This document shows positions 13,639 to 38,369 of a stretch of 64,000 nucleotides of DNA, piece by piece (positions within the stretch are counted from its first letter, which is position 1; each line of letters starts with the position of its first letter). A model generated the notes under the pieces. It saw only the letters and a program-made list of their open reading frames with translations, searched no databases and had not been told where the DNA came from. This stretch comes from Phoronis australis. Its lineage: Eukaryota; Animalia; Phoronida. Both the position numbers and the translations under genes were made by a program. The stretch is from assembly GCA_002633005.1 (NCBI GenBank), contig NMRA01000158.1, positions 428,733 through 492,732 of the forward strand, given 5' to 3'.

Positions 13639-16600
13639 TTATAACCGTAAGTCGCCAATGAACGCCAAGGAAGCAGGGTGTCCTCCATCAAGTCTCTTTT
13701 CCATATCGAGCGACTGCATCAGAAACTCTATGTATGCCATGTGATCTCCAAGAGATAAAAATGCAAAAGCGAGATTTCGTAAACTGATCGCGATGTCCTT
13801 GTGATCTCCATCACCGTACATCCTTTTGCGCATGCTCAGTGCTTCTATGAACGATTGCTTAGCTTCTTCATTCTTGCCCAATCGTGTATACATTACGCCT
13901 GCTCTATCTAAGCATGAAACTATGAAAGCACCATCTTTGTCGCCGATTGCTTGTCTTTTAAGTTCCAAAGCCTTCAAGTAGAATTCCAGCGCTTCCTTCA
14001 AGTGTTCCATGTTATCATGTATACATCCCACATCAAACAACGACTTAGCAATGTCAGAGAAATTGCTACGTAAGCGCGTTCTCATTTCTAAAGAGTCCTT
14101 GTGGTATTCTAGTGCGTGGTCAAAATCCTTCCTCATACTTAACACGTTCCCAATGTTGCTTAAACATATCGCAATGTCTGGATGGTCTCTGTTGTTATGG
14201 CATCTATTCATCATCGCCAAAGCATCTTGGTGGATTTGCTCTGCGGTTTCGAGTTGCCCTTTGTATTCTTCCAATTTGCCGATGTTATTCAAAGCCGCAG
14301 CAATGTGTGGGTGGTCACCGTTGCTATGCAACCTCTTATACATGTCGAGAGCGTCGTTGAGAAACTTCTCTGATTGCTCAAAATCTTTCATTTTTCTGTA
14401 TACCGTCCCGAGACTGGTCAAAGAAACTGCAATGCTGGAATGGTCTTGGTTGTTGTTCAGCTGCCTGTCCATGCTTAAAGCCTGTTTGTGATGCAGTAAT
14501 GCTTTGTCATAATTCCCTAAGTTGGTATAGACCACGGCTGTGTTGTGCAAACTCGCTGACAGATCCGGGTGATTTCCATTTCCGTGCAGCCTGAGCCTCA
14601 TGTCCAGAGCTTGAAGGAGGTATCGTAAAGCCTCATCAAACTCACCTTTCTCTTTGTAGGCGTGGCCAATGTTAGCAAGACTTCTAGCTATTTGAAGGTC
14701 GTCACGCTGACCATTCAGCTTCATTTTCATGTCTCGCGATCTCATAAAATGCTGCAATGCCTCATCGGGTTTACCCAGGTCCAGGTACGTGCTTCCGATA
14801 TTATTTAAGCAAAGCACCATATCGTCATGATCTTCATCACCATGTATATGTCTCCATGCATCATGTGAATTTAGAATGGTTGCGAAGGCCATATCAGACT
14901 TCCCTTGTGCTACATACAGGCAAGCCATGCGGTTCAGGCTATAGGCAAACGCAGAAGAATGGTCGCCTCTTCTTTCGAGAATACTCTGCACAGTGTTTTC
15001 GTAGAACAAAGTCTCATCCAGTCGGTCTTCGAAAAAATATGAATTACCTATTAGTACCAGACACTGTCGCATCTTCTCGTCCGTTTCACAATACGTGATA
15101 TCACGCCCTTCGTACGTTATTTTCCGCAGGTCAGCTTTTCCTTCAAATTTGTTACCTTCCATCATTCTTTCAATATGTGACGCAAAATGATTTCGCGATT
15201 GCTTGAACATGCAACAGTGAAGTTCAACGAGCCCTGTTACGAATTCGTTGTGTTCGTAAAAAGTCTGCCCGAGTTTAATTTTCTTCAAAAACGCATCGTT
15301 ATCATTTTCTTGTAAAGCGCTGGTAAATGGTATTATAGTGTAGTAGCATCGGAACACTAGGGTATGGTTTTGAATATGGGCAACTGGGTTTGACCCTGGA
15401 GTTGTATTCAGATGAGAGCTGGGACAGAGCAAGCTTATAGACTCTTCTTGGTGTTTCTTCTCAGAGTAGATGGACAATCTCAGGAGCGAAACTATTGATA
15501 CGACACATTTCAAATTGTGAACAGCCTCTTGCGTGAGTATATCTGCTGACCCCATCTCCTCTAACACCTCCCATGTGCTGTTACTGTTCAAGGAGTAGAG
15601 GGTTTTGAATAGACAGATGACTAGTGTAGGTAATCTGAACAAGTCTTTCTTGATATCGTGGACAACTGCATCTTTATGAAAACTCATATTTGGATAGAAG
15701 TCGCCTATGAGATCTTGGATTTCCCCGAACGCCTTCACTTTCACGTCATCGCTGTTTTTAGCTTGGGCCCGAGCTGAAGTGAATTCGTCCAAGAGTTTGT
15801 TCGCTTTGTTACTTCCATCGATCTGTACGATGGAAGTCATTATGCGATCGATGTTATAACCCTCTTTCAGCGCAGTGTTATATTCACACAGCTGTGCCAT
15901 ACGCTGAGGTGTCCGGATCAGTTCACGACCTTCCTTGGTTGGCCTGTCCGGTCGACCAAGAGGCGTGTTACACGCATAAGGGGCGGCGCTGTCGAACTGA
16001 AACCCACGAAGTGCAACATTGTCTATAAACCAATTCCCGCCTGGTGTGTCGTAGTCGTTTAGTGATTTGATGGCAAGGGATTTTAGAAGAGTTTCTTGAA
16101 TATTAAGAACGAACAAATGGACCATCTTAGCTAAGTTCTTGAAGTAGTCCATGTTCTTTGTGTCATCTTCTACTAAAATAGCCCATTCAACATCAGAATA
16201 AGGAGTTGTCTCCCCTCTCGCTAACGAGCCTAGAGCAACAGCTACATATTCTTGAGGTGGCATACCGAGGATATCTTTGCTTAGAGACAGCAAATACCGA
16301 AAGAACTCAATGATTGCTGCACTCAAGTCAGCAAACAGACGCTGCGTCTTGTCGTTAAAGTCCTTTTCTATCTCAATGCGTTCAGAGTCAGGGGCATCAA
16401 GACTGTAGTTACTCTCCATTTCTTTCAGTAGGTTTTGAGATCTTTCAGAAAATTCAATTCTTAACTCAGCTAGTCTGCCTTTAATATCAGCCCTAAAATC
16501 TGATGGTAGTTTATTAGGTTTTACTGACACAGCTTTGCAAAATTCGCATTCCGTTTCCTTCAGCAAGAGTTCCAGTTGATCAACTAAACTGGACTCCTTA

Positions 16601-18429
16601 GTTCTCATTAAACCCGCGTGGAGGAGCGCTGCTGACTTGATGAAATGGTCTGTGTCTTTTGTCACTCTCCCACGTTCACAGTACACGTTCCCCATATCTT
16701 TCAGAATCCGTGCGTCAGCCTCAAGGTCTTCACGCGAACCATCTTTCAGGAGCTGTGCCAACTTCTTTTCTTCTACCTCTAGCGCCAAAACGTGATCGTC
16801 TGTAACCAAAAATAAAACATCAGCTGCAATGAAAATTTTTGCTTTTGCATCTCGTGTTGTATCCAAATTTTCAGCATTATCCGGGTACTTTTCGGAAGGA
16901 AGGAATTTAACGGCACTCAGTCTATCGCATGTATTCAAGACATCCATATTTATAACGTTTGTTCATCAATCAATGTATTTAATTATGTAATAAAGGTCAT
17001 AATTCCAATGTACAAAAGAACAATACTTAAATGTGCAGCAAGCTATCACGGAGACGAAAGGCATAAAATACATATTTACATATATTAACTAATTTAGCAT
17101 CATAATCTGTTGACATCCATCTACTGAACTTGAAAAAAGACGGTAAATTCCAGTAGTACATCTCAGTATAATTTTAACTCAATTAGAATATTTATCACAA
17201 CTTAGGATCGTTTTCAATACCACTGGGGCAGAAGGGACACACTCTGTGTGCCCTATCCAAATTCAAGTGCCTGCCTACTTCAATCATGAGACTGTGGCTA
17301 AAACAACGAAAAGTGTCATTGACAAAATTTATGCACAAGGTATATTCAGACTTAAAAAAATCCAAATTGAATTCCTTTTTAAGTTGATCATAAAAACACA
17401 GTTGAGAATTACTCTCAACACTTTGTCTCCATCATAGAAACATAGACCATGTTGGTGAAGTGAAAAGCGTCTGGGGTTAAACCAGGTTTTACTAGACCAC
17501 TGGTCTAAAAGTTACACCACTTTTACAATATGCAGATTATCTTTAAACTTGATCTAAATCCAGTTTAAACGAAGTTTAACTTTAAATCGCTTTTATGAAA
17601 TCGGATGTATAAGTCTAATTGATGTGGCCTAATTAGGGAGTTTGTTTGTCTTCGGATAAAGATGTTGACGATATACTCCAGGTGCAATGACGAAACAATC
17701 ATTCAAAATAAATTACAATACTAATGAATTATGAAAGCACTTAATAACATTTCAAAAGTCTAGGAAGACTAATCCGCGTTTCACGTTTCTCTAGAGCGGG
17801 GAATAAATTTGTCGTACAAAACCCAGATGCAAGAATTTTTCTGAAATCTATGTATTACCTCTAGGAATGCAAATATACTGATATTAGATGATATAGGGTA
17901 TAAGGTAAAATAAACGGGGAAATGTAAGATAGTAATATTTTATTTCCAGTATATATGAATGAGATGCTCTCTGGCGAAAATCTGCTGTGGTTAACCTTTG
18001 CACATAAAGGAAATAGTATGCTCCTAAGGCCGTATGAAACGAGGATCCGGGGACTCGTGGGTAGTCATCTCTCTTACCCCCTAACAATTTGCTGGGGTAG
18101 GGGCGAAGCCTCGTTGGTGACAAGAGGTAATGCAAAATTATATACCGACGACGGGATGGGAGGAGGGGGAGGGGGTTGGGGCACAGTTTGGGGAAGTCGA
18201 ATTTGATAATTTGCGCCACAAATAAATTTTACCGCCCTCCACACCTGTGGGCGGTTTTTGTTTCATCCCTGCATGTCCTAAACAGTGTCGTTACGAAAAG
18301 CCACTAACAGTTCTGCCAGTCCTCTGTCTAACAAAACCAACTCTCTGAAACTATAGCCGGCTTACCAAAATCCCGCCTCTCGAGTTGCTCTGTATCTCGC
18401 CAATCATCAGAGTGTTCGTTCTCCGCCAT
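13639..18429 (-). CDS. Nucleotidyltransferase (GlnD/DUF294-like) + helical domain + TPR-array protein, paralogue 1 (~1074 aa)
   Basis: Predicted exon 1 is 18429-18366 (MAENEHSDDWRDTEQLERRDF, donor GTAAGC, phase 1). Exon 2 is 16799-13639 (acceptor TTTTTGGTTACAG), in frame with the 1102-aa ORF. NTase motif VALGSLARGETTPYSDVEWAILV at about 16240-16175; DUF294_C-like segment DIKKDLFRLPTL...STWEVLEEM...LLRL; then about 10 TPRs of the DHPDIAxSLNNIG type. Confidence 0.85.
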
Positions 18430-19812
18430 GACAGTCGTCATTGATATCAGAATGTCTGTCTAACGAAACTCGACTGCAACTGAAACTGAAACAAAGTTAC
18501 CATTACACAACCGTGAGTGTCTTCATACTGAATTCAGACCATGGTATAAATTGCACGGTGTATGATGACGTCGTATACCTTCGATATTGTTAATATTAAA
18601 CCAGTCCATATTAGGCCTCTACACCCTTGGTCAATGATGTTCCTGGAAACACCATAAAAATTAACCAATGCAGTACTGACTCCGGTGTATATAAAGCTAA
18701 CGAAGGTGAACCGCCGTTAAATTAATATGATAAAACAGCGGTCCTGCTCACTGACATGACACTGTCACAACACAACACTAAGGTGACATACCTTTAGATA
18801 AACACCTCGCTCTAAAGTACTGTTACAAGATGCATCCTTATCCACGTAATACACTCCGACACTGTTGTACTTCCTGGTCGCGCACGTAGGGTCACTGAAT
18901 GGTTTACATTAACCGAGAGGTTTTTACTTCAGTCAACAAAAGGATACAAAGGTGCAAACACGTACAACTCTTTCATCTGGGATTTTTTTCTTCGCAACTG
19001 CATTTTCACTGCTAGTATAAGACTATCAGATATCCGGAATATACAGACACCGAGTTTCAGCGTTCAGGTGACGAGAATCATTTGAATACTGCATGTGAGT
19101 TCACCTCGTCCTTGGTCCGAGTTGTAACCCTGGAATGACACAGGGGCCCTTCAGTATGGGAAGAAATATGCTTTCCTTGCTCCCGAACCTGTTTTTGTCT
19201 AAGCGAAATATTTGTGCTAGAATAACTAAGGCTCCCTTGCAATTGGGAAATACAAACGGAAAAGTAAAGCAATCCAGATATCATTGATAAACATGGATCG
19301 TCTTGCAAAATGTTTATGATATAGTACAGAATGTTTTTATTTGTAAACCAGGGCCCCTTGATGAGCAAGTATAACTTATAGGAGATTTTTAAGTTGTCAT
19401 TTTATTGAAAAGCAGGTGGCATTGGAGACGGACGAAGCATGACGCTTCAATCGTCTTTTAAAAAGTCTATGATATGGAATAACTTGTTTAAATTTGTAAA
19501 CTAGCGCCCTCTGAGAACTTGAACAGCTGCAACTTGAAACGCAGCAGGAATTAAGAAACGGACGCAGCGTGAAGCTGTAGCGACGATTTCACTGAATTTG
19601 TCTCCTCCGTGGAAGGAAAATAGTTGTCAATGGATGGCATCTGCTATTCGCTTCCTAAAAATTCAGAGTTGTTGTTTTAAAAACTGCTTGGAGTTTGATG
19701 AACGAGAGTTCACGTCTTTCACGGAAGCCATTCGAAAGAGACAAACAATATTTATTCGCACACGGTTTACGAATTTATAGCGAACGATGGGCTCAGGTGT
19801 AACTGGCAATAA

Positions 19813-19968
19813 CTGGCGTGCGTTCAGTAGACGCTAGGACCTACGCTAGGACCTAGCTAAAATCTAGTCAAAGTCACGTGTTCTCATTTGAAATGCACGG
19901 CAATATCTCACGTAATCTCGCGAAGTCTTGATTTTTAGCGAGGTCCTAGCGTTACTGAACGGGAGGCT
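19813..19968. mobile_element. ~155-bp MITE-like element (second copy at about 61714-61876)
   Basis: CGTTCAGTAGACGCTAGGACCT ... AGGTCCTAGCGTTACTGAACG inverted repeat; the same sequence recurs 42 kb away. Confidence 0.7.
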
Positions 19969-21199
19969 GGTTTATATGTATGTAAAAATAAAGCAATACA
20001 ACGTAAACGCTCTATTACGAACAGCCACGTAAGCTACCTGAACCGTTTCTGCGTGCGAGATTGTCTCGCCGCTTGTTGAAGGTTTGTGCTACCGTTTCGC
20101 TACACCATCAACGTCCGGTTTTATGACTCAGTGGCGGACCTAGGATGCGATAAGNNNNNNNNNNNNNNNNNNNNNNNNNNNNNNNNNNGAGGCAACAAAC
20201 AAGCGTGCGTGCACCCAGCTTAAAATGTACGGGGGAGCTCCAATTACTGAGCTGGGAGTGTGAAGGTTTTTGAAAGTTTCACCAAACACAAACGGACAAC
20301 TAAAACGGGAATATGGCTGTGCTGCTGGTCCGAGCCCTCATACACGCACGCACAAGCTGGAATTGGACGACTTATTAAATCTTGTTTCACCCACATGTTC
20401 ATTACCAGGCTTGATTGAGCTCAATGTTTGCTCACGCTCATGCTCTCTTGCAGTTTTATTTTTTTTGCGGCAGTCAAGGGGGGGGGGGGCTAAAGCCGCC
20501 TATGTGACTTACGTCAAATTTGACTTATTGACTACTAACACGTATTGGCCATTATGCTTGAAACCGATGTTTTATGTCCAAACAGTGGCAATGGTTTTGG
20601 ATGTTTGGAACACGAGCGCTTTCACGTTTACGTTGATGCTAAAACGAGACATGCTGTCCTTAACAACAGTACACAGCATTCATTTTTGCAGCGCCACCAA
20701 AGCGTGCAAGTAGTGCATTATTACGCTGTGTATCATTGTAATCACCTACGCGACTCCTATTTGGTAACTATAACGCCGTCACGAACTGTTGGTTGTGTTA
20801 TAACACCCTTATATTCCCTTTTGAGCGAAAATGTAACGTCGCCGGTGGCGTTTATGTGTACTGCGGCGGTCACTTCACCTTTGCATTTTGGACCTGTCCC
20901 GCTTTTTATTGTAAAGGGGCGCGTGTTGATATAGAGGAATGAGGCACGGGTATGTAGTTTCAGTTGTTCATTTCACGAACTACAAAAACAAAAAACACCA
21001 TATAAAATAAAATAAAACAACAAAAGTAGTAAAATTTAATATCAGAGCAACCTTACGTCATATACACCATAGGCAAAGCAACAGTGTTTACATTCCTTGA
21101 AATTCATCAGCACCTATTAATGCCAATTACACAAGTTAGACACACGGACAATCATAATTTTGCCTACTATGTATGGAATACGGAATGAGAGTGGATGGC

Positions 21200-22340
21200 T
21201 GTGCCTGGAAGAGCAAGCTGGCGGTAATAGGGTTACGTAATCAGCAGCGTTGGCTGCAACCAGACCGTTAACAATGTTGTAGAGAAAAGTTTCACTGAGG
21301 TCAGCTCTTCTATTTTTCAGAGATCTCAGTTGAGCTGATGAAGTATGTTCGACACCCTGGAACTTTGTATATGTTTATTAGCTACGCGCTCTGCACTGGA
21401 CCATGTCAATGTTTTGACCTTCCGTTCCACGTATGGGTCCAAGACGCTAAAGCCGAGTATTCCAAGACTGGCCTCACAAGAGATTTGTTGGCACTTTCTT
21501 TCACACGTAAATTGCTCACATGTAAGCTACGTAGAAAGCTCAATAGTTTCTTGTTGGCTTTTGTTGTGATGGTATCTACATATGACTTCTACGATAAGTC
21601 AGCTGTATAAATAAGCCAAAGGCACTTAACTGAGTCAACGATCTCGAGTGTATGACCGTGAAATTGATAATGGGACTTGACAACTTTTACCCCTGTAAAC
21701 ACGTAATAGGCTACCTGGCACTCATCAGGATGGCATTTCATCAGCGATCTAGTCTCCCAAGCAGCAAGCCCGCAAGGTCTTGATGGAGCTTCGCTAAATC
21801 AGATTGGCTTATAATTGTCAGATAGGTTATGGTGTCATCTGCAACGAGGCGAGTTTTGGATGTCATTGATACCAAACGGAGACAGGATACAAGGACTGAT
21901 CCCTGAGGGTCTCCAGATGATACAGTAATCGAGAACCACTATCTGTAAACGGAATGATAAGAAGGGATGAATCCGCAGGAGCCGGGTTTGCCACTGACAC
22001 CGTGTCGATAGCTTGTACAATAGTCTAGGATGATTTACTTTGTCAAAAGCTTTCGAGATGTCCGTGATCAGAACTTCTGTTTCCACACCTGATATCTTGT
22101 TTAAGAGATCATATGTAAATTGTATGAGTTGAATATCACATGATGGCTTTACTCTAAAGCCATGTTGGAGGTCATACAGGATGTTGTTAGATGACGCCGC
22201 ATGGTCCATGATGTTGCTGACCAAGATGGGCTTCATTAGCTTACTAGCAATCGATGATAAAGAGTAGTCTCTAGTTGGGTGGGTCGAATCGTTTACCCTT
22301 TTTTGAAGATTGGAGACAAATTGCCATTTTTCCAGTTGTT
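21200..22340 (-). mobile_element. Degenerate non-LTR retrotransposon (CR1/L2-like) reverse transcriptase remnant
   Basis: NNILYDLQHGFR..SC..QL...DISKAFDKVNHPRLLYKL in ORF 21835-22236. Downstream RT-type motifs (RPVLEYSALASWTH) are broken by stops and frameshifts. Ends approximate. Confidence 0.8.
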
Positions 22341-22408
22341 ATGTGCCGCCCTTACCACGTACTACGTTATTCTAATATACTATATGTTTAGAAGACAGCT
22401 TACCTTAA

Positions 22409-24627
22409 AGGAGAATGCACCTGTTTAATTAGTCTTTTTGCAGTCTTAATCGGTCTATATCCACATCGGTTCGCATACGCTCGACCTTACCTTGCCAAGA
22501 GATGTCACGTTAACATGTGAGGAAGGTGAGAAACGACGCTAGCGACGTCAATGGTTCATTTGCAGAGTGAATGCCACTATGTTGCGGTGATTCGTTCCCG
22601 CTTGTCCAAACTATGCAGCTGCGAGGAAAACGGGTATATCGTTTTTTTGACTTCCTCGAGAGTCCGAAATGCTTAGGAAGTGGCTCGCGGTAGTGAAGAA
22701 TGAAAAGTACGCTGTAAATAGCAAGTATGAGGCCGTGAAACATCTTCGTGTCTGTGGCCTGCAGTCGTCCACAGTGCCTGACGTCGGAATGCCGGCTTAC
22801 CAAGTAACTATCCATACGTTCCTTTATCTGAGCTTGTTCACGGCGCCTCTCTAGTTTTTCTTCATCACTGTATTCCTGTTCGAACTGATAGCCTGTGAAA
22901 CTTAACGATCTACCTGCGAAGTCTTCGATGAGTTCTCGTCTAAGTTGTAATTGCGAGTTGCCATGTTGACGTTTATTACTCAATGATCTGTTTCAAAAAT
23001 TAATATTCTCACCCTAACCAATACTTATATAATACTGAAACGAAGTCTGTCTCATTAGATGCAATTTGTAATGCCTTTGGAGTGTTCGTGAGTGCAAATG
23101 ATTTGAGAATCCAGCAATGAATAAATCACTGCGTTACGGGCTTTAGGTGCAATAAAACTAATTGACGGGACACCGAGGCCGTGTGAGCCCATACTAACTT
23201 AGCGTTTGCTGACAGAAACTCGATTTCCATCCCACGGCCAGGTGTTACGAGAATCTTTATTTACATTTACATTATTCAAATAATGATTGTCAATCATTAC
23301 AGCGTTCGGTCGTTCAGTAACTTTTCCACACGTGAGGGGTGCTGAACGTGCGATAACATCTGGCTCTTTTGTTAACTGCCCAGCTCAGTCTTTTGTCCCG
23401 TATGATAAGCAGGCCAATTATCTCCCAGGCTTCGAGGGAAACGTATGGTGGTTGCACGGTATTACCGAACGCGTATTCAGAACACAGTCAAACCCGCGTT
23501 GGTAATCCGTTTGGACTGAAAAGATTGTCTTAAATTCTGTTGTAGTTGGGCGATTTTGGTGATTCAAAAACTTAACATGGTGAGCATTTGACGAGGAATT
23601 CAGAAATGCTATTGGTTTCAGCTCAAATATGTAAAAACTCAACTTTCATTTTTATCAGCCCAGTCCACTCAGGATAGATACGATCTGATCGGAGATATGA
23701 GCAATTATCGAACAAAAGAGCGCAGGCCCTCCAACCATAAATGCCAGAATGGAGCTAATTAGTCGTGTAAGATATTGGCTACAGGGGTAAACCTCCCAAC
23801 TTGTTATTGGGCTATAGAATCGAACAAGTTGGGAGCAACGGGATGTCGCCGTCATGGTACAACTTCTGCCCTGACGGTGCTGTGGCCAAAGCGGAACCTG
23901 AATTCGCGGCTCCTGACGAGTAAGTAGATATGCAGTTTCGTGACAAATTCACCAACATAATCACGTGCACGTTACTTTGGCTCACTAGTATAGTATTTTC
24001 TTGAGTGGAAGTTTAGTTTCCAACTTCGACTGGTTTATGTTCGTGATGTCTGATCGGTTTCCGAGCCACTGGCAGGGATAACGACGGTCAATCCGGCCGC
24101 GACGGGCCTGATCGGGCTCCGAGCCACTGGCCAGGATAACATGCGTTTTGTGTGTTTAAAACTCAAAAAATCACAAGTCTAAACAACACAGATCTAGCTT
24201 CTCCTGTCAGTATCTCACGGAAAATACTTCGAATTTATCTCCGAACAGACCCCAAACTCAGTCCTGCTACGGACCTTATTGGCCTGTCGAACTTTGTAGG
24301 CTACGGTGTGTCCAGATACCAATAAATCCGTAACAGCAAAATAAAAAACACGTTTTTATAAGAACTTGGTGTATTTTAAGGGTTTTACATCGAAGTTTGA
24401 TGATTAATTGGTGTTAAACGGTGAATTCAAGCGATAAGCTAACACCACTAAATCGTGTTGTGAACTGGTGAACAGACTGCGTGTGAAACCACTGACGTCA
24501 TTGGATATTTTCAACACTTAAGTCTGCCGTAAGGTGTCAGGTAACGCAACCGTACGTGCCGTTATGGAGTAGAACTACTTGATCTAAATTAATACAAATT
24601 AGGTTGTTTTTTGGGTGACATGCTCCT
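22409..24627 (+). mobile_element. Kolobok-like non-autonomous DNA transposon with degenerate THAP domain (copy 2, inverted relative to copy 1)
   Basis: TTAA|AGGAGAATGCACC ... GGTGACATGCTCCT|TTAA; colinear in reverse complement with 5838-7507 plus about 550 extra bp. From 22579: [58 protein letters not shown]. Confidence 0.8.
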
Positions 24628-25043
24628 TTAACTGGATACAAACTGGTCCCGGACACAGCAAATACACTTGAAGATATTATAAATCGTCTGGAATGACTTC
24701 AAAGCACGTCTCGTCTCTTTCGAGTCCCAAGTACGAAGCACGACTGCACGAGTTACTAAAATAACTAAAACGGCTTACCTCAGTTCAGCTTCCCTCAGTC
24801 CACTCTGAACTCTACAAACTACTGCAAACATGAACTAATATACAGATACACACATATGTGCACAGTGACTATCCCAAGTCACACACACAGCTAAACACGT
24901 CTGAACACTCAGAGTTCACGGCGGCAACTCCCTAACGCTGAACTGCTGCTCTACAGGGATTCTGAAACTCCCGGGATGTGACGTCACTACCATAGATTCG
25001 CTGGAGCGCGGTCCACTACAGAGTCTAAATGCATCATGCACCT

Positions 25044-25631
25044 ACTCGCTGGTTCCCTGCGTGGACTAGGTGGGGCGGTAGCCGCCCCAGCACTCAGGTA
25101 TCACTTAATTTTCCTTGGTAATTTTTTTACACCGGAGTTTCTGATTGGCTAGTCGAATTCTCAACAGGCAGCGCTTTACGCAAACAAACTGGCATGACTG
25201 ATGGACTAAAGTGTAAATGTGGTCTGTTGTACAGACAAATCGGTGCTTAAAATTAATGTTCAGGAAATATGAGGCCTAGAAATTGTGATTGCGCCTTTTC
25301 ACTGAGAATGCATCTTTCTGCTGTCGATGACTTCTGTTTACGATAGTGTCCTATACTCATACAGTATGAATAAAACACCGATTAAGTCGACCAGATATTG
25401 TACATGTATGTTCTTCAAGAACGCGACTAATAAACTTCACTGCAGAAACGAAATAGTTGCTGCGACGCCACGTGCATGACAAGGCTAAAAATCGTTCACA
25501 GTCCGCCATTTTTTCACGGTGTTGTAAAGCTAACCAATGACTGCCGAGGTTACATCGACCAATGCTAAAGCGCGTGCCACTGCGTGATACCTGCGTGCCG
25601 GCTGGGCTAAGCACGCAGGGAACCAGCAAGT
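25044..25631. mobile_element. Non-autonomous TIR element with 8-bp target duplication
   Basis: ATGCACCT|ACTCGCTGGTTCCCTGCGTG ... CACGCAGGGAACCAGCAAGT|ATGCACCT. A related end occurs at about 36766-36785. Confidence 0.8.
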
Positions 25632-25657
25632 ATGCACCTCTCGAGTGACTTTTGAAT

Positions 25658-25816
25658 CACTGGCGGATTTAGAGGGGGCCCAAAGGGAACATGGCACCCG
25701 CTACAATTCTTCCAGATTCCATTTAGCTGTTCGGGGGTGCGAATGTCTGACGGGCAAAATCCTGGCTAATACTCTGCCCTGGCCCCCCCTAACTAAAAAT
25801 CCTGGATGCGCCCCTG
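25658..25816. mobile_element. ~160-bp MITE with 5-bp target duplication
   Basis: TGAAT|CACTGGCGGATTTAG ... CTGGATGCGCCCCTG|TGAAT. Confidence 0.65.
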
Positions 25817-27573
25817 TGAATAATCCTGTTTAGAGCAGTATTTCACCTGACGCTACATGAGTCAGGTAAAGACAAGTGCGAGACTAGCGAAAAGTAACGA
25901 GGAGAAGATATCCGGTTGCATTTGTTAGATCTGTGTCCCTTCGACATTTTGTTCGTCAACAGGCGTGATTCTGCGTAACTTCAGCGAAATGGAACCCGGT
26001 GAAGGAAGATTTGCATAGATACGTTCAAATTATTTTGATTGAATTGTTTCCAGAATCATAGCGTGCGTTAGTTATGATTCAATGTGTATATATGCATGTT
26101 CCATTCGATGTTATTTGAGACGAGTAACCATATATGTGACTGAGTAGGCGATCGCACGCGAAGAGTTATTACAGAGCGAGATAGAGACAAATATTTTACA
26201 TCCAATGTTCAAATTCATGCTCCGACACAAACATGGCATACTAATGAGTAACAAAATAACACATTACAGAATTACACTGCACTTCAGCACTATGTGGCAA
26301 AGTTCCCATACTATAACAATATAACTACTGTTGCCCTACCCAGGTACAGTTCACTTACAAGACTGCAGCAATGTATACAGTATAAAACACAACGAAAAAC
26401 TAACCTGAGACGTACTTCTCAACACTTCTCCCCAAATATGTTGCAACCGAGACAAATGTCCATGCAAGTGAATAACCTTGACCTACAAATCTGTTAACTG
26501 ATTGGTCGTACCACCAAAAGACTAGCAAATAAAGAACAAAATCATTACATAAGAAAACAATGCTAGAATCATTAACACCCCTCATGATGTAGTGCTAAGA
26601 TAGTAACTGGCTAGAGTCATGCTGCAAGGGATCAAATTCTCCCAAGTATAAGGACGCTTTCTATGCTTTGTTCTACAAATATAAACAATGAAGTTACGTA
26701 AACTGAACTTCGCTCTACCACACTGTTACGTTGTCTCACGTTTTTAATCCGTGTCATTTTTTTCATCGTTGGATATTGGCAACAAAACATGAAGCCAATG
26801 CGAGCTTAATGGGTCTAGTGTTTTGCTAAATTCTATTTTTGTTTAATCCAGTTCCAACGCAAAGGACCCAAATCTGGAGTTATTTTTGTACAGTGAAAGG
26901 TTACAAACCCCTGCTTTAGCGATTTCGACCAATGCTCGTTCTTTCACCTGCTAATGCATCATTGACGTCCACCTTGAGTTATAAAAAGATGATTGGATTA
27001 AAACATGGATATTATTGTTCTTGGCGGGTGATCTTTGCCTATAGTTACCTTGTAACTCGCCTAAAGCGCACGTGGCCTTGCCTATTGAGCAAACTTTCAA
27101 AGGAATTTGGCTCCACGATTTTGAATGTTGTCGAGGGTTACATAGCAATATTTTGTTTCAGAGAACTGGATGAGAAGGTCGCTTTTTATATCAGATTATA
27201 GTCCAAAACCGGGCTTGGTATCTTTTTAATATTCTGCAGTGTTGTTTCAGTCTAGTGGCAGAGGTATTTAGTTTGAATGGACGTTACACATCAAAACTTT
27301 GGTTTAGCGTGCACAGAACCACATTTTCGGGACGTCTGTGTATTTCAACGCTTCATTTTCTGTCTTATCTTTAATGGTAAATGTGATCTTCTAACTGTTT
27401 TTCTTCAAGTACACGTAGAATCATTTTGTCCAGCCGAGAATCCTAAACGGTCATATTTGAGAACAACGTGGACTTAGATGGCGTAACGTACATGGCCATC
27501 AAACATAAAGCAAATTCATGTTCTACATGTGCCTCGTAATGGGTGGAGTGAATGTAAGTTCGACACAGTACTA

Positions 27574-28017
27574 CCGGGAATTTCCGTAGATAAACCCATG
27601 GGCGTGTAATCAGAAAATGAAAATTTTCAGGCGTTTTAGCAACACCAAATAAACGCCTTGGCGTTTATTCGGAAAAGGGGGCGTGTAAAGGGAAAGTCAT
27701 AGTTTTGCATGATTTGACACCATTTTACATAAAACTGTGTTTTTATTTTTTTGTTAATAAATGCATAGTTCGCCAACACCTTGTTCGTTTTTATAAGTGA
27801 TAAACGCTCCACAAAACTGAATTTGTAACAAAAAGTTGACACTGAGTGGCCTTTTAGGATGAAATTTTCCAAAATAATGTCCCACTGTCTGGACACTTGA
27901 CACCAAACGTTGTGACACAAAATAAACACCAGTTGGCTTGTACATTATTTGGCATAATTTTCCGAATAAATGCCCTTGTGCGTTTCATCGGATGGGCTTA
28001 TTTACGAAAAAAACCGG
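27574..28017. mobile_element. MITE with TA target duplication
   Basis: TA|CCGGGAATTTCCGTAGATAAACCCAT ... ATGGGCTTATTTACGAAAAAAACCGG|TA. Confidence 0.65.
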
Positions 28018-28819
28018 TAGATCTGAGAAAGCAGTATGTAAAGCACCAGCGAACATGAATTTTTCACCTCAACTTTGGTTGCCTGATGACAGACATCTCC
28101 AATGTTTGAAAACCTTGTTATAACCAATTGTTGCCATCCCCATGAAGATCAACGACCTTCATTTGGTAGTTGGTGTTAGAGGTGTTATCATTGACGTTTG
28201 GAGTGTTTCTGATCTCTACTCAAGTTCACTGGTTCAATACAAACGACATCGAAAACGATTTTGTATGAAATTCGTAGGATCCACATTGTCACAATTTGGT
28301 CTGACCTTGTATATGGTTTGGTTATCGAGAGGTTACCGTTGTTAGTTGGTCTATACTGACTTATGCTCACCGACGAGTTCGTTTTGCAAGTGCAGGTAGC
28401 AGTCACACTAATGCTGGTATACACGTGTTGCTTGGCAGTCTACCGGTGGTTTGGGCGGAGGATAGTTGTGTTTTGCCACGCTCTTTACTTTATATTTGAA
28501 GCACACGGTGCGCGTACCAGTTAGAACATTTTGGAACATGTTAGTGCGACTTGTATCGAATATTTGTTAGTACAGGTACTTATAATATGATGTGTCAGTT
28601 TAATTTACCTGGGCGTTATGTGAAGGTGGTTTTACCGTTCCTTCTAATTGCAATTCGAAAATACGTTTATGCTATGCTTGGGCTATTGAGACGGTCGGTT
28701 CACTCACTTGTTAGTGTATCTGAGTAATTTTTAAGTGACTCTTAAGTTCTATCACCACGCAGCTGAAGCACGAGTGCAGGAGGCTGGTCAAGCTGGGGTG
28801 GCGTAATATTGTCAGAACA

Positions 28820-28999
28820 GTGGAAAATCTGTGATGGTGACAAGACAAAGTTGTGGCACTGTGTAGTGGAAAATCTGTGATGCTGACAAGACAAAGTTGT
28901 GGCACTGTGTAGTGAAAAATCTGTGATGCTGACAAGACAAAGTTGTGGCACTGTGTAGTGAAAAATCTGTGATGCTGACAAGACAAATTTGTGGCACTG
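28820..28999. repeat. 46-bp minisatellite, about 4 copies
   Basis: Unit GTGGAAAATCTGTGATGCTGACAAGACAAAGTTGTGGCACTGTGTA starting at 28820, 28866, 28912 and 28958. Confidence 0.95.
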
Positions 29000-29374
29000 C
29001 TTAGGACCCTAAAGAGACACTGAGACCTTTTTGAACTATAATAATTTTCGTATCGGCAATCATTATAATAAGTTTGTGTGTTGTGTGTGTGTTTGAGGGG
29101 TAATATGTATTATAAAATTAACTGTATTCTGTCTATTGTGTCTTGAGGAATTGGCTGCCACTAGACAAACTTGACACACATGGTGTGCAATCAACCAGTT
29201 AATAGACAAAACTTTTTATCTTATTTTTTAATTAATCCCAAACTTGATGGACAGTTGGACTTGCCTTTATATAACTATAAATCTTAGATAACTAGAAGAC
29301 TTATCTTCTGTTTTGTCTTTCCCTCGACATTTGCAATGCTTTCCCACCGGGATCAACGTTGCGGTCACATTACT

Positions 29375-30032
29375 ATGGTGGGCCGTTGAGGGGAAAGTGT
29401 CGCCGTAAAATTACGCTCGTAACTACGAACGTAAATTAAATTGCAGGAGTGTCGCCGTACAATTACGCTCGTAAATTAAATGGGGAAAAGTTTCGCCGTA
29501 AAATTAGGCTTGTAATTACGAGCGTAACTTAAATTGCAGGAGTGTCGCCGTACAATTACGCTCGTAAATTAAATGGGGAAAAGTTTCGCCGTAAAATTAC
29601 GCTTGTAATTACGAGCGAAAGTTAAATTGCAAAAGTGTTGTAGTAAAATTACGCCCGTAAATTAAATGGGGGAAATGTCGCCGTAAATTACGCTCGTAAA
29701 ATACGTTCCAAATTTAAACCGATCAGTGATGACCTAACATACACGACTGTTGCTAGGCAGCTCGTATGGCAGCAGCGATTTGATCCGCCATGATTCAGCG
29801 CTCATATCGTAGACATGACATCCGTCAGTAAATAAGTATTTCCATGAGCGCGCGCGATCGTGGATTGTAAAACCCAACGTCATTGGCTAAGAGTTTAAAC
29901 TAAATTACGAGCGTAATTTTACGCCGTAAAGAATTAAATTAAACTCGTAATTTTACTGCGTAAATAACGGCGTAATGTACACAATTACGCTCGTATTTTT
30001 CCGGCGACACTTTCCCCCCAACGGCCCATCAT
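29375..30032. mobile_element. Foldback-like TIR element with subterminal repeats and 8-bp target duplication
   Basis: ACATTACT|ATGGTGGGCCGTTGAGGGGAAAGTGTCGCCG ... CGGCGACACTTTCCCCCCAACGGCCCATCAT|ACATTACT. The interior carries many copies of CGCCGTAAAATTACGCTCGTAA in both orientations. Confidence 0.8.
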
Positions 30033-31240
30033 ACATTACTATGTATTTGTTATTTACGTTGCTTTTCTTTGAAATACACACTAAAGAAACGAGTTTTTCA
30101 GTAGGGCCTTTCAAAAACAACAAACACCAGTTTTTGGTGGTAACACATTTTCTATGTATAAAACTCGTTTGCCTATTATTGGGTGGGGGAGAGCTATTAA
30201 ACCCATAAACCCAAAGTTTCGCCCTGGTGTAAGTGCCGCGAGGCACTGAAAGTGTCTTACTATTGCAGTCTTTAGGCAGTGCTGAAGACGAAGTAGGGTT
30301 TATTCAAGACACTACATACTCAAAACCGAGGAATCACTGGTATACAATCTCCTAGTCAGAACTGAAAAACACCAGAATCATTTTGAAACGAATTATATTA
30401 TTTGTAAAGATGATCACGTTTCAAGACGTCCAAACTGGTGACAGGAGTGATGTGTTTAACTACCGATGTACTCCCAACAGGATCAAGAAACAACTTAAAA
30501 AATGATTATGCAGCGGCTTGAGACATAACTGGCTTCATGATTGCTCAAATGCTACCTTAAAAGGATACTTAACCCTGTTTTGATTATTTCAAACAATCAC
30601 GTTACGTCGGACCTGGTAATAAATCATTGGTGTTTCACGGTTCTCGGTGGTGGTCTTTACTTACAGTTGTCTTCAAAGCTTAGGTCACGTTAGCCAGAGT
30701 AGGCGACTTTGAAAGGAGATTCAAAATTTTGCTCCAAGCTTTTGAGGGTTGTCGAACGTTTTTTTTTTTGGTTCAGAGAACTGGATGGAAAAGTCGTTTT
30801 CAATATCTCTTGCTAGGACAAAACAGGGTTTAGTATCCTTGTAAGGAAGTGTAAAAATATATACACACGCACAAAAACACACACACAATAAGATGACTAA
30901 TAGATGAAAGTTCCAAAATAACACCTAACAGACTTTGAAAACAAGGTTGAAAAAAGTTTTGGACACATTCACGTGACACTAGGAGTATGATGGCTATCAA
31001 GAATTTGAGAAGAAAATGTGCGTTTAATTTAAGCTTCTAAGTTCTAGGTAACAATCAGAGCAAGTCACGTGGAACACCATATTTTGCAAACTATGTTTAA
31101 CGTGGTACACCTTGTTTTGTTTAAATTTTGCTTTTTATTACAAGTTATCGTCTCTGGTGTGATTATTATAAAATATGATTAAATCTTTTGACTAAATGTA
31201 ATTCATTCAATGATCGCTTCATAGAACAGTTTTCCAGTCA

Positions 31241-34200
31241 CTAATTTGACTTATTCATGTTAAGTTTCGGCTTGTCCCTAGTAGCTCTGCACGGAACTTT
31301 GGGAGAGTTTTGTCCCTTGACTTTAGAAGTTTTTTTACAAACACGAGTGCATCTTGTCAGACTGTTAATGCATTCCGGGTGCGTTTTAACTCCGTGTATT
31401 TCACACCTCATGTTGAAGGCATTGCGGTGATACTTCAGCGCCAAATCAAATTTAGCCATCCTAAAGTAAACCATTCCAAAATTGTTCAAAGTGGCTGCAA
31501 TTTGCCGATGATTGACACTTCCAAAAAGCCTTCGTTTCATTTCAAGCGACCTTTTCAAGAATTCGCAAGCTTTTTGATATTGTTTCACCATCATGAGTAC
31601 TGCTCCAATATTGTTCAAACACTTTCCGATTACCTGGTGATCACGTGACCCATATGCCAAGCTTGCCTGTGCCAAGGAGTTCTTCAGATGTTCTAAAGCT
31701 TTTTTGGTGTTACGCTTCATAGCATACACCATCCCGATTTGTAGGAGGTATACGGGTGCGTTTGGAGATACACGCCCCTTTTGAAGTCGATTGAGCATGT
31801 CTAATGAACCCGTGCCGTACTGTAACGCAGCGTCCCACTCTTTCTTTGCTATGTACGTGAGCATGATACTGCCCAGGCTTATCACAATTTCTTGGTGGTC
31901 AGCAAAATAAACCCGTTTCTTCATATCGAGTCCGCGAAACTGATAGTCCAATGCGTTGTCTAACTCTCCTTTATCGCAATACAAGTTTCCAATATTAGCC
32001 AAGCTTATTGCAATTTCAAAATGATCCACGTCACCATAAAGTCTTTTTTTCATCTTAAAGGAATCATCCTGGTACTTCAACGCTTCGTCTACCTTCCCTA
32101 AACATCTTTTGACTATTCCGACAAAACTAAGACTATTAGCTATACTCTTATGGTCCTCGTTGTTAAAGAGCTTTCTGTTGAGACTCAGCGATTCACTGTG
32201 AAATTTTAATGCTTGTGTGTAGTCCCCGATACGTCGATACGTTTCTCCGATGTTTGTCAAAATGGTACTTCGAAGACCTTCATTGCTGTGTTTGGAGTCC
32301 TTTCTAACCAGTGCAAGCGAGTTCAGCAGGTATTTCAAAGACACCTCCAAATTCCCTATGGCCCCATAAACTAGACCGAGAGTGTTTAAGACACGAGGAA
32401 TTTCAGGACTGTCGCTTTGCAATCTTTCAAACATGCCTAGTGACAACATACAATACTTCAAAGCTTCTAATGTGTGACACATATCAAGGTATACACGAGC
32501 CAAACAGTGCAAGCTTGCCGCTGTTTCCAGGCAATCATTGTTTCCATGTAATTTCTTGTACATCTGCAATGAATCCATACAATAGTCGAGGCTTTTAGCG
32601 TAATCGCCCATCTGGCAATAGATGTCGCTAATGCTATCTAAGCAAGAGGCAATATCTGAATGATCACGACCGTTGTGTACTTTCTTCAAAATTTTCAAAT
32701 CCCTAGTGAAGAAGTCCAGCGCTGATTTTAAATCATGGTAACCGTGTTGCTTGAAGTATAGGCTGCCAGCCAAATGCAACACATGCAACTGCAATGTGAT
32801 CTCAGAGTTGATCGTATTGAATGTATTTCCACCGCCAGTGGCATTTTCATTAATTTCTGCACTGGAATGTGCGCCAACGCGAGCCCATTTTTTCATCATA
32901 CTGTCAAAGTATTCTGATGCTTTACAAAATTTTTTTGTCGTTGACGCCTCTTCGAGGAACACCCTTGCTTCATGATACTTTTGATCAATTTCAAGAAATT
33001 CCAAATTCCACAAGAACTCTAGACAAGTTCCAATACGTGGATGATCATTTGAGCCGTGTAATTGTATCCTAACCGTAAGTGCTTATCTGAAAAACTTTGA
33101 AATGCACCCCTATAATTATCCATCATAAAGTACGCATTCCCGAAATGTTCCAAATTTAGCGCCACATCTGGATGAATCCCATTTCCGTGAATTTTGAAAT
33201 GCATATCGCGAGATCTTTCGAGATAGCGCAATCCTTCTGTAAATTTTTTTTGGAAACAGTAAATATTTCCGAGATTTGTCAAAGACAGTGCTAAATGAGG
33301 ATGACCATCTTCACCAAACAATCTTTCCAACATGTCTACAGACAATGTGGACCATTCAATAGCCTTTTCACAATCCCCACGTTCCAGCAGTAAACAACCC
33401 ATGTTATCGCACAAAACTCCAATTTCTAACGAATGTCTATCGCCATTCAAACTGCGGAAGGTCTCCAGTGCCCGATTGGTAAGCTTTTCAGCCAAACCGT
33501 AGTCCTTTGTCTGTGTAAGTAAAGTTGCCATCTGAGCTTCATACTCAACCACCTTTGGCAAGAGACAGCCAGTCGTTTCACACATGTCTACTGCCAAACC
33601 AACATATTTCAATGCCAAAGGATAGTTAAAATCAAATTCAAAAGTTCTGCCTATCAAGCTGAAACATTCTTGCACTTCTGCATCAGTTTCTTTGTATAAA
33701 ATCTTCTTGTTTTTGTAAGCGATTGCCTTAATGTTTTTGTTGCTTTCGCTCAAGTGGGTGCTCCGTTTGTAGATATGCTTGAAAAAGCTATTGCGTGCTT
33801 CTTCATTCAAACAGCAGTTGAGCTCTATTTCGCCCTTGAACCTATCGCTGTCCTCATAAAAGCTGTTCCCGGAATAGCGCAACTCCACTTTCAAGCCATT
33901 ACTTTCATATCCAGAAATAATGATCCCCGATAAGGGACGCACAGTGAAGCAATATCGGATAACAAGGATAGCAAAGTTGTCTAAGTAAGCAACACCATCA
34001 GAATGAAGGCTGCGGGCGGAAGAGTGTTTTTCAGGGAGTATGCTGATCAATTCGTCTTGACACTTTTTTCGCAAATACGTGGCGAGTCGAAGAAGTGACG
34101 ATATCGATACCATACATTTCAGGTTATGAGCTCCCTCTGAAGTCAAAAGGTTTCTGGACACCATCTCTTCTAGCACTTCCCACGTGGTGTCAGCACTCAA

Positions 34201-35956
34201 ACCAAAACAAGACTTGAACAAAGTGACAACCAACGTGGGCAATCTAAACATACTCTTCTTGATGTCCCGAACGGTAATGGATGGCCGGTTGAAATTTAAT
34301 TTCGGCATGAACTCAACAAAAGAGGCCTTAATTTCGGCAACAGCTTTTATTTGAACTTTAGCATTGGTTTTAACTTGTGTCCGTATAGAGGCAAATTCGT
34401 CTACAAGCTTCTTTGCCCCATTACTCCCGCCAATATGTAGGACAGAAGTCATTATACGATCAATGTTATAACCCTCTTTAAGCGCAGTTTCATATTCACA
34501 CAGCTGTGCCATACGCTGAGGTGTCCGGATCAGTTCACGACCTTTCTTGTTTGGCCTGTCCGGTCGACCGAGAGGTGTATTACACGCGTAAGGCGCGGCG
34601 CTGTCGAACTGGAGACCACGAGGCGCAACTTTGTCTTCAAACCATCCGCCAACCGTGTCGTAATCGTTCAATGATTTAATGGCTAGAGACTTAAGCAGAG
34701 TTTCCTGAATGTTCAATACAAACAAATGGACCAATCGTACCAAATTTTTGAAATATCCGATATCCTTTGACTCGTCTTCCACTAGAATTGCCCATTCGAG
34801 ATCAGAATAAGGAGTCGTATCACCTCTGGCTAATGACCCTAGTCCAATGGCTGCATATTCCTGGGGCGGTGGACCAAGGATGTTCTCACTTTCAGAAAGC
34901 AGATATCTAAAAAAACCTACCATTTTTTCTCTTAATTGCCCAAAAATATGTTGTGTTTTTTCAATGATCACTTTCTCGGCAGACACGCGCTCAGACTCAC
35001 TTACATCGAGGCTATAGCTACCTTGGATTTCTTTCAATAAATCATCAACCCTGCCACCAGTTGCTTTTCTTATTTCATCTAACCTACTGTTTACCTCAAA
35101 CCTAAAATCCAAAGGTGTTTTCTCAGGGGTAAGAGATAAAACCTTACAAAAAGAAAGTTCAGTGGTCTTTAATTGTCTTTCAAGATCTTCCACTAAACCT
35201 GGTCCCCGTGTTCTCAACATTGCTGCGTTAATGAGTGCCGCCGATTTCACAAAGTTGTCCACGTCTTTCGTCAACAGACCACGTTCACAATAGACCTTTC
35301 CCATTTCCATTAATAATTTAGCATCTCTCTTCAGATCATCACGTGACCCTTCCTTCAACAAGTCCGCCAGTGCTTGCTCACTTTGGTCCAGCTTGGAAAG
35401 ACAAATACCGTCTAAAACATAAGGAAAAGGAAATTAATAAGATTCACGTAGTGNACTTGTCCGACGGCCTGCGTAAATGGCTTCACAGTTTTTTTTTTTC
35501 GGGCAGGGTTCTCGCATTCTCGCATTCTCACACGCGATCGTAAAGCAAAAGTATGAGCTTTCAATAAATATGAAACAGCATTAGAGGGCGCAACAGCGGG
35601 GAAACGAAGAGCCGTCTCAGCCTATTTTAGAAGTCTATAGTCTCTTCATTTTTTGGACGATCTTAGCAACTCAACAAAACCTAAATTACAAAACGAGAAC
35701 TTGATGTACATACACTTTAGGTTTCGTGTTATTCACCGTTTGGTTTCCGTTGTCTAAACGAAGGTATCAAAAATAAGATTCACAGTAAATACTGCTGTTA
35801 TTGCTACTTTTGTATAACAATAATTTCCAGTAATTATAACTGTATAACTGGATTTCCAGTGACATCTACAGTAATGGTGATGTTTAGGGCTTTGGATTGA
35901 ATTGACACTATTTTCCATTGCTCTGACTTACCGTCAGTTCGAGTCATGTCCGCCAT
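31241..35956 (-). CDS. Nucleotidyltransferase + TPR-array protein, paralogue 2 (~1400 aa if repaired); one frameshift at about 33083
   Basis: Exon 1 is 35956-35932 (MADMTRTD, donor GTAAGT, phase 1). Exon 2 starts at 35411 (acceptor TTATGTTTTAG). NTase motif IGLGSLARGDTTPYSDLEWAILV. ORFs 33019-35361 and 31241-33013 join by a frame change at ...TCA GAT AA GCA CTT..., which restores the TPR-like ALTVRIQLHGSNDHPRIG. Confidence 0.8.
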
Positions 35957-38369
35957 GCTCTCGTTATTAGTTTCACTTCTTTAAATCTTCAGGTTTTCCG
36001 AATCCTTTTGAATGAAAAAATCAGCCTCCTAACTCACTGGTCAGCTAAAACAACAAAATGAGAAAGTAGGCAAACTTATGATTTACCAGGGTTGAAATCA
36101 GAAATTCTACAACAGAATACGATCACGACAGACCAACGATGAGCGACCTAAGCCCCTGCCTGCCGATACAGAGACTTCAGTAACACACTGAGCCTGCACA
36201 ATGCCGGTGTTCGTATCTCAAACCTGATTTCATGAAACCAGATATGATTCTATTTTCAAGCCCATAACTGAGTCGTCGGATTTAGTTCTACACGCGACCG
36301 AAAAATAAAATGTCACCTACGTGGAACGTCCTAGATCATGCAATGGGGCGCAAAATTACCAGAAACGCGCGAATGTATTTAACAACCCGTACAATGCCCA
36401 AACTAAGACACGCATTTTTGTCCTACACGGCGTGCAAGTTTGAAAACATCTCAAAGGATTCCTTCGCAAAAAATGCTTATTTCAGACGTTACAAAACTGG
36501 CCTAAACTCATGCCTAATATAAGAAGTTTGTTACTGTTCGGTGAGTTGTCCAGCCCCTGGAATCATTTTTATTCAAAGAAAAGTACAAACCTACTGCAAA
36601 CACCCTTTCCTCTTGATTTTTTATCATTTTTATCACTATGATATTCCACCGCTGTTTAGTTCCCAATGTTGAAACCCAAGGGCTTTGAAATTTAAACACA
36701 CTGCCGCACTCATCCGATATTGCCGAATGAACTGCCAGTACTCATGTCACTGCAAAGTTTACGCCTAGCTGGTTCCCTGCGTGCCGCTGGGTAGTCAGTA
36801 GCCATCACGTGCTGGCTAGGCACGAAGATAGCCAGCGAGAATGCGAGAGTGTACGCACGCGCCATTTCCAAAATCGCAGTTCTAGGGTTGGTCAACCGAA
36901 AATTTTCTGAAGCTTTTTCTTAAGCCACTGGTGGTTTTGATGTCCTTGTTGGCAAAGGAAATCAAGTCCTGTCATGACGAGGAATATTAGGAGACAGGTG
37001 TTATCAACTTGAGCTTGCGTAGGAACTAGAAAAATGTACAAAATGTGCAAACTTTGTAACATCATACCTTAGAAACGATTAATTGTATTCATATGAAAGT
37101 TGCATATACTGTGCGTTATGCGCTAGTCTAAAATGTGCTAAACATTGTTTTAGAATTTTCTTCCTTTGCATGAGAGGCTATAAAAATAGTTGCGTTTTGA
37201 CTTTTACGACTACAGGCTCTAAAGTTAAGTCGAAAAAAAGTCATATTTTAGAAAACTAAAAACGTATCATAAACGTTGATGTTATTGATACTATTGTTTT
37301 TCTATCATTGTAGCTTTACGTTTGCTAACTTTTACTAACAATCATGATCACGGGGCGTAATTGACGGCAAATTGGTGAAAATCAAATGCTACAGGCTGTG
37401 TACACTTTAACTGAGTTACAATTAATAGTTCAGACTGCGCAGAATCAGGTAAGTGAAAGCCGACTGGTGTCCGAAAATGGTCGAAACCTTTACAAAATGA
37501 CGACCAGCCAACAATGCGAGTCGCCAGCCGACTAGAACGACGTCTTTCGTGAGAATGCCACTTAAGTGAATGATCGGCCGGGCGAGGTTGGAATCTTGAA
37601 TCATGGGATAGAACTAACAAATTATAAGATAGGCTACGATTCACTGTGTTCGTTCCGCGAAAAATTTTGCCACACGTACAAACTAATGTCTTGGGTGTAC
37701 GGAACAGTCTTGTATACTGTGTCGATTCCACCTGAGGGTTGACTAGCGGGCATTCGGGCAGTGTCTCGTGGACCCCTCTCTCCTTAATAAGGAGAAATGG
37801 TTTTAATGCTAGTGAAAGTTGACACTAATTGGATGCAATTAATTTACGAGACATGACGTCCTTGATATTAGAGTCCCTAGGATCATAACCCTTTCCAATA
37901 AATTCGGACGACAAGTCAAAGCAATCATGAGATAAATTAAGGAGTTCAAATCACGTGGTCTGTGTGACGAGCGGGGTGGTCCGCCATATTGATTAGTGGG
38001 GATGGAAGTGAGTCGACCTCCCCATTGACTTAAGCATTAACAGCAACCAAACGGCAGCCATTTTTACTGTACGTACGTCAAGAAACGTTATGTACACGTA
38101 GTAACCCAGACCAGTGTCCTTATCAGGCTAACTTAGCAACATCATATCTTGCTGATTGATTAGACTCATACGAAACAGACACTGGGCTACATGAGTGATT
38201 CCCCAACGCGCCGTTACGAATTGTTTTTAAAATGTTCCACTTTTGCATAAGACGACTTTGATGATATTCATATTAATTTGAAAAATAATCAAAAGTTACA
38301 TAAATCGACAATGAAATGTAACAGAGTTCTTGAGATTTCATCTTCTGATTTGTGATCCCATACGCTAAT

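Follow-up and report, generated by a model that had tools for sequence, protein, structure and literature searches.

What do two related genes on the minus strand of a phoronid genome encode, and what might their products do? The genes lie about 18.6 kb apart in a 64,000-nucleotide stretch of Phoronis australis DNA (assembly GCA_002633005.1, contig NMRA01000158.1, positions 428,733 to 492,732 of the forward strand; hereafter the window). An initial annotation took them to be fusions of a GlnD/DUF294-type nucleotidyltransferase (NTase) with tetratricopeptide repeats (TPRs), forming a candidate uncharacterised sensor-enzyme system in an animal. Our judgement inclines, slightly, to a reading in which gene 1 encodes a predicted DrrA/GlnE-type NTase that would move AMP (or another nucleoside monophosphate, NMP) to a TPR-selected protein target, probably in defence, with gene 2 as its frameshifted paralogue.

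The nucleotidyltransferase core and its predicted fold

The NTase motif, the G(F/L)QFD motif and the helical segment quoted in the initial annotation can all be located in the translated open reading frames (ORFs) of both genes. Gene 1 (ORF 13639-16962, minus) carries VALGSLARGETTPYSDVEWAILV together with GFQFD, gene 2 (33019-35433, minus) carries IGLGSLARGDTTPYSDLEWAILV together with GLQFD, and the helical segment DIKK..FRLPTL..TWEVLEEM..(A/V)HNL..LLRL is common to both. A six-frame search of the window revealed no further copies of the NTase domain. Gene 1 is a single open frame of 1107 codons (residue numbers below are counted from the start of frame 13639-16962) and is an intact, transcribed and well-modelled member of its family, transcription being judged from roughly one-fifth of the data in each of three RNA runs made under unstated conditions. 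Using a TPR profile built from gene 1, nine units above 5 bits and one weak unit are seen in this protein, in line with the ten or so proposed. Gene 2 has one clear and three weak units before a break in its frame and ten after it; the larger number proposed for this paralogue is correct as a count (we find about 14 in all), but ten of the units lie out of frame, past a frameshift.

The Pol-beta signature G[SG]-x9-13-[DE]h[DE] is present as G245-S246..D257-x-E259 in gene 1 and in the same form in gene 2. Pfam DUF294 (PF03445) matches both proteins above its gathering cut-off of 21 bits (29.8 bits for gene 1, 23.6 bits for gene 2), the match spanning only profile positions 17-94 of 138, and is found at E ≤ 0.1 in all 20 alignment members. 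Matches to SidM_N (13.1 and 14.7 bits) fall below the cut-off of 27, PRK03381 (the NCBIfam model of full-length GlnD/GlnE) reaches 12.7 bits against a cut-off of 631, its multi-domain layout being absent, and PADLOC returns weak NTase-motif matches only. DUF294_C matches 10 of 20 family members; the window proteins have the structural equivalent without a Pfam match. Over 177 domain units the catalytic signature is near-invariant (173 of 176 scorable units), and K438, R443, R495 and Q505 are conserved in the helical domain. The R-x4-6-H motif of active HEPN RNases is absent from the helical domain of either paralogue, and passages of PMC3710099 list the GlnD/DUF294_C group as lacking it.

Single-sequence fold prediction was uninformative (predicted local distance difference test score 40). 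The predicted model displays a Pol-beta fold with a carboxylate-bearing sheet, and Foldseek matches it to DrrA and GlnE at E values of about 1e-6 to 1e-7. D257, E259 and D324 are predicted to form a Mg-binding triad matching D110, D112 and D150 of DrrA; D324, which is conserved in 176 of the 177 units and adjoins a beta-bridge in the model, is the likely third carboxylate. With DUF294 above its cut-off and this fold match, both the assignment to the GlnD/GlnE/DUF294 group of Pol-beta NTases and the helical domain behind the core are borne out; the closest solved fold, however, is that of DrrA, not GlnD.

The fold comparison also bears on what the enzyme might act upon. A diffusible nucleotide signal could be made when the TPR array senses a ligand, in a manner that resembles cGAS or OAS by convergence: the Pol-beta superfamily is the same, a CARD is present in one relative (of five proteins scanned singly) and cGAS-TPR fusions are described for oyster in passages of PMC8195603. 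Yet the sole CD-NTase among the listed Foldseek rows stands at E 0.17, against about 1e-6 to 1e-7 for DrrA and GlnE, and the domain that trails the core belongs to the DUF294_C/GlnD type. We consider such a signal unlikely, and the suggestion in the initial annotation of a nucleotide-signal synthase is disfavoured. No cGAS, OAS or CD-NTase structure is among the 50 rows listed of a second fold comparison, though such a match may lie lower down. Next after DrrA and GlnE in Foldseek come kanamycin nucleotidyltransferases (E 0.01-0.08), which, with weak MntA and ANT(4') matches for the window proteins, would suit an acceptor that is RNA or a small molecule (a tRNA end or an antibiotic-like compound) rather than a protein. 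These matches fall short of those to DrrA and GlnE by some four orders of magnitude, and proteins are the more fitting targets for a family with a long, variable TPR array and relatives of effector type, making this option quite unlikely.

GlnE possesses two catalytic domains, the window proteins one. Its class-specific position is Asn in the removase and Gly in the transferase; according to passages of PMC4454073, the removase needs N169 (equivalent G697), four residues ahead of the first Asp. This position is Thr in the window proteins (T253; 173 of 176 in the family), as it is in the transferase DrrA, which renders it highly improbable that the enzyme strips AMP from host proteins modified by bacterial effectors, like the N-terminal removase domain of GlnE. 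A protein AMP (or NMP) transferase is favoured because both characterised structural neighbours AMPylate proteins, the signature is intact and Thr occupies the removase position as in DrrA.

Relatives, known systems and origin

Full-length profiles are dominated by TPR matches. The full scan recovered 1544 clusters (animal and bacterial together) at E ≤ 0.001, a number that drops to 1051 at 1e-10 and to 284 at 1e-30; identity is 38% or less throughout the best 150. Thirty clusters were looked up, and included 13 from Branchiostoma, six from Owenia and one each from Clavelina and Parachlamydiaceae; a separate search added four from Clavelina, one from Neochlamydia and a protein labelled Gigaspora. 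The last of these (P0012, labelled Gigaspora margarita, a fungus) sits on a long branch among bacterial sequences and may come from an endosymbiont. Two or three NTase domain copies per chain are seen in P0013, P0014, P0015 and nine other homologues. The sequences support a multi-copy family with lineage-specific expansions, as had been proposed, rather than a single-copy housekeeping family. Database names of members include KLC4 and TTC28, so the expectation that automatic annotation would miss the enzyme holds in part, but UniRef labels several animal members 'Protein-PII uridylyltransferase N-terminal domain-containing protein'.

Prokaryotic genomes scanned with one sequence gave no match, but a pattern and profile scan (one genome per species) identified 26 loci: 13 in Chlamydiae, Rickettsiaceae, Midichloriaceae and Holosporaceae, six in Gammaproteobacteria, one in Bacteroidota and six in uncultured bacteria. 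Chlamydiae, Rickettsiaceae, Midichloriaceae and Holosporaceae live inside eukaryotic cells. Fused domains vary: two chlamydial members (L005:2885-5400 and L003:2156-5200) carry a methyltransferase domain ahead of the NTase, P0093 a RickCE-like protease domain and another relative an OTU domain. Of 62 long N-terminal extensions, 39 form one cluster, and none of seven scanned contains a recognised signalling domain; for these reasons death-fold fusion seems uncommon in the family.

In a tree of 165 rows, most of them unlabelled, the window pair forms its own long branch (support 100; all supports are of the Shimodaira-Hasegawa type), separate from two clades, one of 60 rows that includes amphioxus and one of 43 rows that includes tunicates. 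When bacterial loci are added, a branch (support 96, 59 rows) has all the named animal rows on the same side, and this animal split is seen in a reduced quick tree of 35 rows from which unnamed, long and redundant rows were dropped (support 99). Placement of the window pair with bacteria is not rejected by the approximately unbiased (AU) test (p 0.314), and a single animal origin of the family is therefore plausible but not established. The trees are unrooted, and a transfer from bacteria to animals is inferred.

How does the family compare with known systems? The N-terminal AMP-transferase domain of Legionella DrrA/SidM (PDB 6yx5 and 3nku; Pfam SidM_N) is the closest solved fold, at 15% identity. 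In DrrA it is followed by guanine nucleotide exchange factor (GEF) and P4M domains, whereas the window proteins have the TPR array and no GEF or P4M Pfam match; the window genes, in addition, are animal-encoded, contain an intron and specify a TPR-like cap. Passages of a 2015 survey place DrrA-like proteins in Legionella only. Closer in layout is NEX2, described in passages of PMC4209131 as 50 Neochlamydia proteins with an F-box, sometimes an OTU domain, then DUF294 and TPRs, with type III secretion signals in tested members; DUF294 is given there merely as a putative nucleotidyltransferase. The domain is homologous (E 1e-29 and 28% identity for one Neochlamydia protein), a mid-protein DUF294 precedes C-terminal TPRs in the window proteins also, and birth-and-death expansion is common to both. 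Unlike the symbiont-secreted NEX2, the window proteins are host-encoded, and neither an F-box nor an OTU domain has a Pfam match in either main window ORF, the known and candidate first exons being just 8 and 25 codons. Bacterial DUF294/DUF294_C proteins likewise have DUF294 above the cut-off, with TM-scores of 0.57-0.59 to the model of an amphioxus homologue, but bear CBS or cNMP sensor domains that the window proteins lack.

Two metazoan AMPylases, FICD (Fic fold) and SelO (pseudokinase fold), have folds unrelated to that of the window proteins, although FICD also pairs TPRs with AMP transfer; passages of a 2021 review give Fic and SelO as the sole metazoan classes (PMC8097203). No paper describing an animal family of this kind was found in the literature searched, although it may appear in supplementary tables of comparative-genomics work, and the available passages of a 2026 review (PMC12894286), an NTase classification (PMC2794190), a polymorphic toxin survey (PMC3482391) and the TRADD-N paper (PMC8195603) do not mention one. 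The two genes probably belong to an animal family of protein-modifying enzymes that has gone unstudied; the DUF294-TPR layout has been published for NEX2. The enzyme class and domain layout are already known from bacteria; what is new here is the tandem arrangement, together with a broken paralogue and the probable conversion tract described below.

Divergence, probable gene conversion and the state of gene 2

The paralogues are 48% identical over 772 amino acids. They are most alike in the core (80%), less so in the helical domain (52%) and N-terminal helices (51%), and least in the linker (34%) and TPRs (27%); a conserved core on a fast-diverging array, as the initial annotation had it, is what is seen. 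Nonsynonymous divergence (dN) of the core is 0.12. Synonymous sites are near saturation almost everywhere, for which reason per-domain ratios of nonsynonymous to synonymous divergence (dN/dS) are not estimable. At residues 322-376, by contrast, just 8 of 50 informative codons have synonymous differences, against 188 of 309 outside (0 of 20,000 shuffles as extreme), and recent gene conversion best explains the tract. DNA contig depth is 4-5 times higher over 15764-16071, and six RNA reads exit the gene 1 tract at its 3' edge into different in-frame sequence; further paralogues therefore share it. Conversion may be selected or may simply occur where the copies are most alike. Two other causes of low synonymous divergence were considered and rejected: RNA structure (z -0.9, no Rfam match) and protein constraint, given that family conservation is higher at residues 233-265 (0.74 against 0.57), where synonymous sites are nonetheless saturated.

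In gene 2 the reading frame joins correctly across a GT..AG intron (35931-35412) and then runs to a stop at 33019. RNA depth is 1.07 and 1.23 in the bin containing the first exon (35821-36047) and 0 in 35594-35820, with no junction reads listed. The frameshift (Table 1) places the last ten TPRs in another frame. A DNA contig spanning it (32503-33245) has no differences and no gaps relative to the window, from a run that may be the assembly's own source, and RNA depth at this point is below the three-read listing threshold. A second DNA contig, over 33644-34519 (depth 4.7), departs from the window at 76 letters and contains 11 gap letters, among them a one-base loss and a one-base gain about 145 bases apart that break the frame, with stops in both alternative window frames there; it may represent a second broken allele or paralogue.

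RNA depth over gene 1 is 0-6 reads in all three runs, mainly on the expected strand, while gene 2 has thin cover in two runs and only three bins in the third. No RNA is seen over 31054-32188 (rough Poisson chances of such a gap, 0.008 and 0.03), and two reads from run X6 link 30976 to 32340 with 23 other letters between; together these suggest a possible allele of gene 2 without the last TPRs. Could the pair be a decaying relic or a non-catalytic scaffold? The frameshift, the second low-depth contig with its additional frame-breaking indels, low expression and the substitutions K332N and G325S would fit, but with gene 1 open over 1107 codons, a core dN of 0.12 beside near-saturated synonymous sites and catalytic acids intact in both copies, this is extremely doubtful. 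Alternatively, an enzyme that modifies proteins might serve constitutively, in housekeeping or development, and have nothing to do with defence; this would accord with transcripts in all three runs and with 11 synonymous changes among the 20 coding differences listed for gene 1. A single-copy housekeeping gene would not be expected to show lineage-specific expansions, arrays that vary in length or a broken paralogue, and we regard such a role as improbable.

For gene 1, splicing is suggested by an AG acceptor at 16801-16800 that resembles the gene 2 acceptor. The candidate first exon is the sole ATG-to-donor candidate of phase 1 when donor patterns are scanned over 16850-30600, and lies beyond the read-covered stretch.

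Table 1 Coordinates of features of the two genes in the window
Feature	Positions	Strand	Basis
Gene 1 main coding exon (helical cap, NTase, HEPN-like helical domain, TPR array)	13639..16799	-	Open frame; low RNA depth in 3/3 RNA runs
Gene 1 candidate first coding exon, phase 1	18366..18441	-	Sequence scan only
Gene 1 N-terminal TPR-like helical cap, residues 60-152	16507..16785	-	
Gene 1 nucleotidyltransferase core, residues 233-402 (G245, S246, D257, E259)	15757..16266	-	Pfam DUF294; conservation over 177 domain units; model and fold match
Gene 1 helical substrate-binding domain (DUF294_C/GlnD-type, HEPN-like)	15418..15756	-	DUF294_C matches in relatives; aligns to DrrA 209-331
Gene 1 TPR array (kinesin-light-chain type; about 10 units, each of 41-43 amino acids)	13663..15075	-	
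Gene 1 likely gene-conversion tract, residues 322-376, covering D324 and the following loop	15835..15999	-	Low synonymous difference
Gene 2 first coding exon, 25 nt	35932..35956	-	ATG at 35956 and GTAAGT donor in sequence
Gene 2 second exon, 5' part (cap, NTase motif 34795-34839, helical domain, first TPRs)	33083..35411	-	ORF and Pfam
Gene 2 likely gene-conversion tract, 92.7% DNA identity to gene 1 tract	34447..34611	-	
Gene 2 frameshift within TPR array	33083..33100	-	tblastn switches frame here; DNA contig has the same letters
Gene 2 3' part, another 10 TPR units, not in the frame of the enzyme	31241..33082	-	ORF; no RNA depth over 31054-32188 in 3/3 RNA runs

Within the gene 2 array, about 80 non-repeat residues (33098-32850, minus) break the TPR periodicity just past the frameshift, and a divergent patch is found at 31907-32057, where a DNA contig has 12 differences in 150 bases (six synonymous, six nonsynonymous) out of 15 in its 1493 bases. 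Elsewhere in the window, near-identical direct duplications flank N gaps at 3349-6054, 11133-11897, 53452-54326 and 58472-60570 and are likely to be artefacts of assembly from a heterozygous genome. A repeat element (about 2 kb) occurs twice in inverted orientation, the copies being 82-95% alike (3935-7490 and 22424-24610) and one of them lying between the two genes, and fragments at 49287-50507 (plus) resemble the 3' end of a LINE-type (long interspersed nuclear element) reverse transcriptase. An exon encoding the ZnF-UBP end of HDAC6 is found at 48542-48892 (minus), its best matches including sea cucumber, newts and ribbon worm, and the locus therefore lies in an animal genome. Bacterial contamination is ruled out by this exon, the GT-AG intron and the clustering with animal sequences.

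A possible role in defence

In the reading that we favour, the gene 1 NTase would transfer AMP or another NMP onto a protein substrate, and the TPR array would act as a specificity or trigger module, most likely picking the target, as in FICD, or else gating the enzyme. Passages of PMC12409994 report that the TPRs of FICD pick its AMPylation target, and DrrA is allosterically switched on by Rab1. The family may have originated among effectors of intracellular bacteria, and under birth-and-death evolution conversion would homogenise part of the active site as the arrays diverged. We infer a defence role from the expansion, copy turnover, array variability and effector-type relatives of the family, and from the CARD in one relative and the OTU domain in another.

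Besides the AU result, several points weigh against this reading. Identity to DrrA and GlnE is just 11-15%, and antibiotics and nucleotides are also among the substrates of this superfamily. D314 (172 of 177 units) is an alternative third acid. Both window proteins have N in place of the family's K332 (169 of 177) and S in place of G325; P294K is a further departure of the pair from the family consensus. DrrA has RPID where the window proteins have RLPT, a position that we take to correspond to D249 of DrrA, the acidic counterpart of which is apparently absent from the window proteins. D249 is named as an extra acid of DrrA in passages of PMC8097203. A CARD occurs in one of five proteins scanned singly and in none of the seven N-terminal extensions scanned, and RNA depth over gene 1 is low, with some antisense in two runs.

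A broader proposal, which we put forward tentatively and hold to be doubtful, is that invertebrates possess a third class of protein AMPylase, derived from effectors of intracellular bacteria and now a diversified family of immune receptor-enzymes, in which variable TPRs would recognise targets and trigger or aim the modification while conversion would keep part of the catalytic site common to all paralogues. If active, a DrrA/GlnE-fold family in animals with an intact signature, amid more than 1000 animal and bacterial clusters, would constitute a third metazoan AMPylase class. If the proposal is true, a host would have retained a symbiont-type effector enzyme, in a family hidden until now under names such as KLC4 and TTC28.

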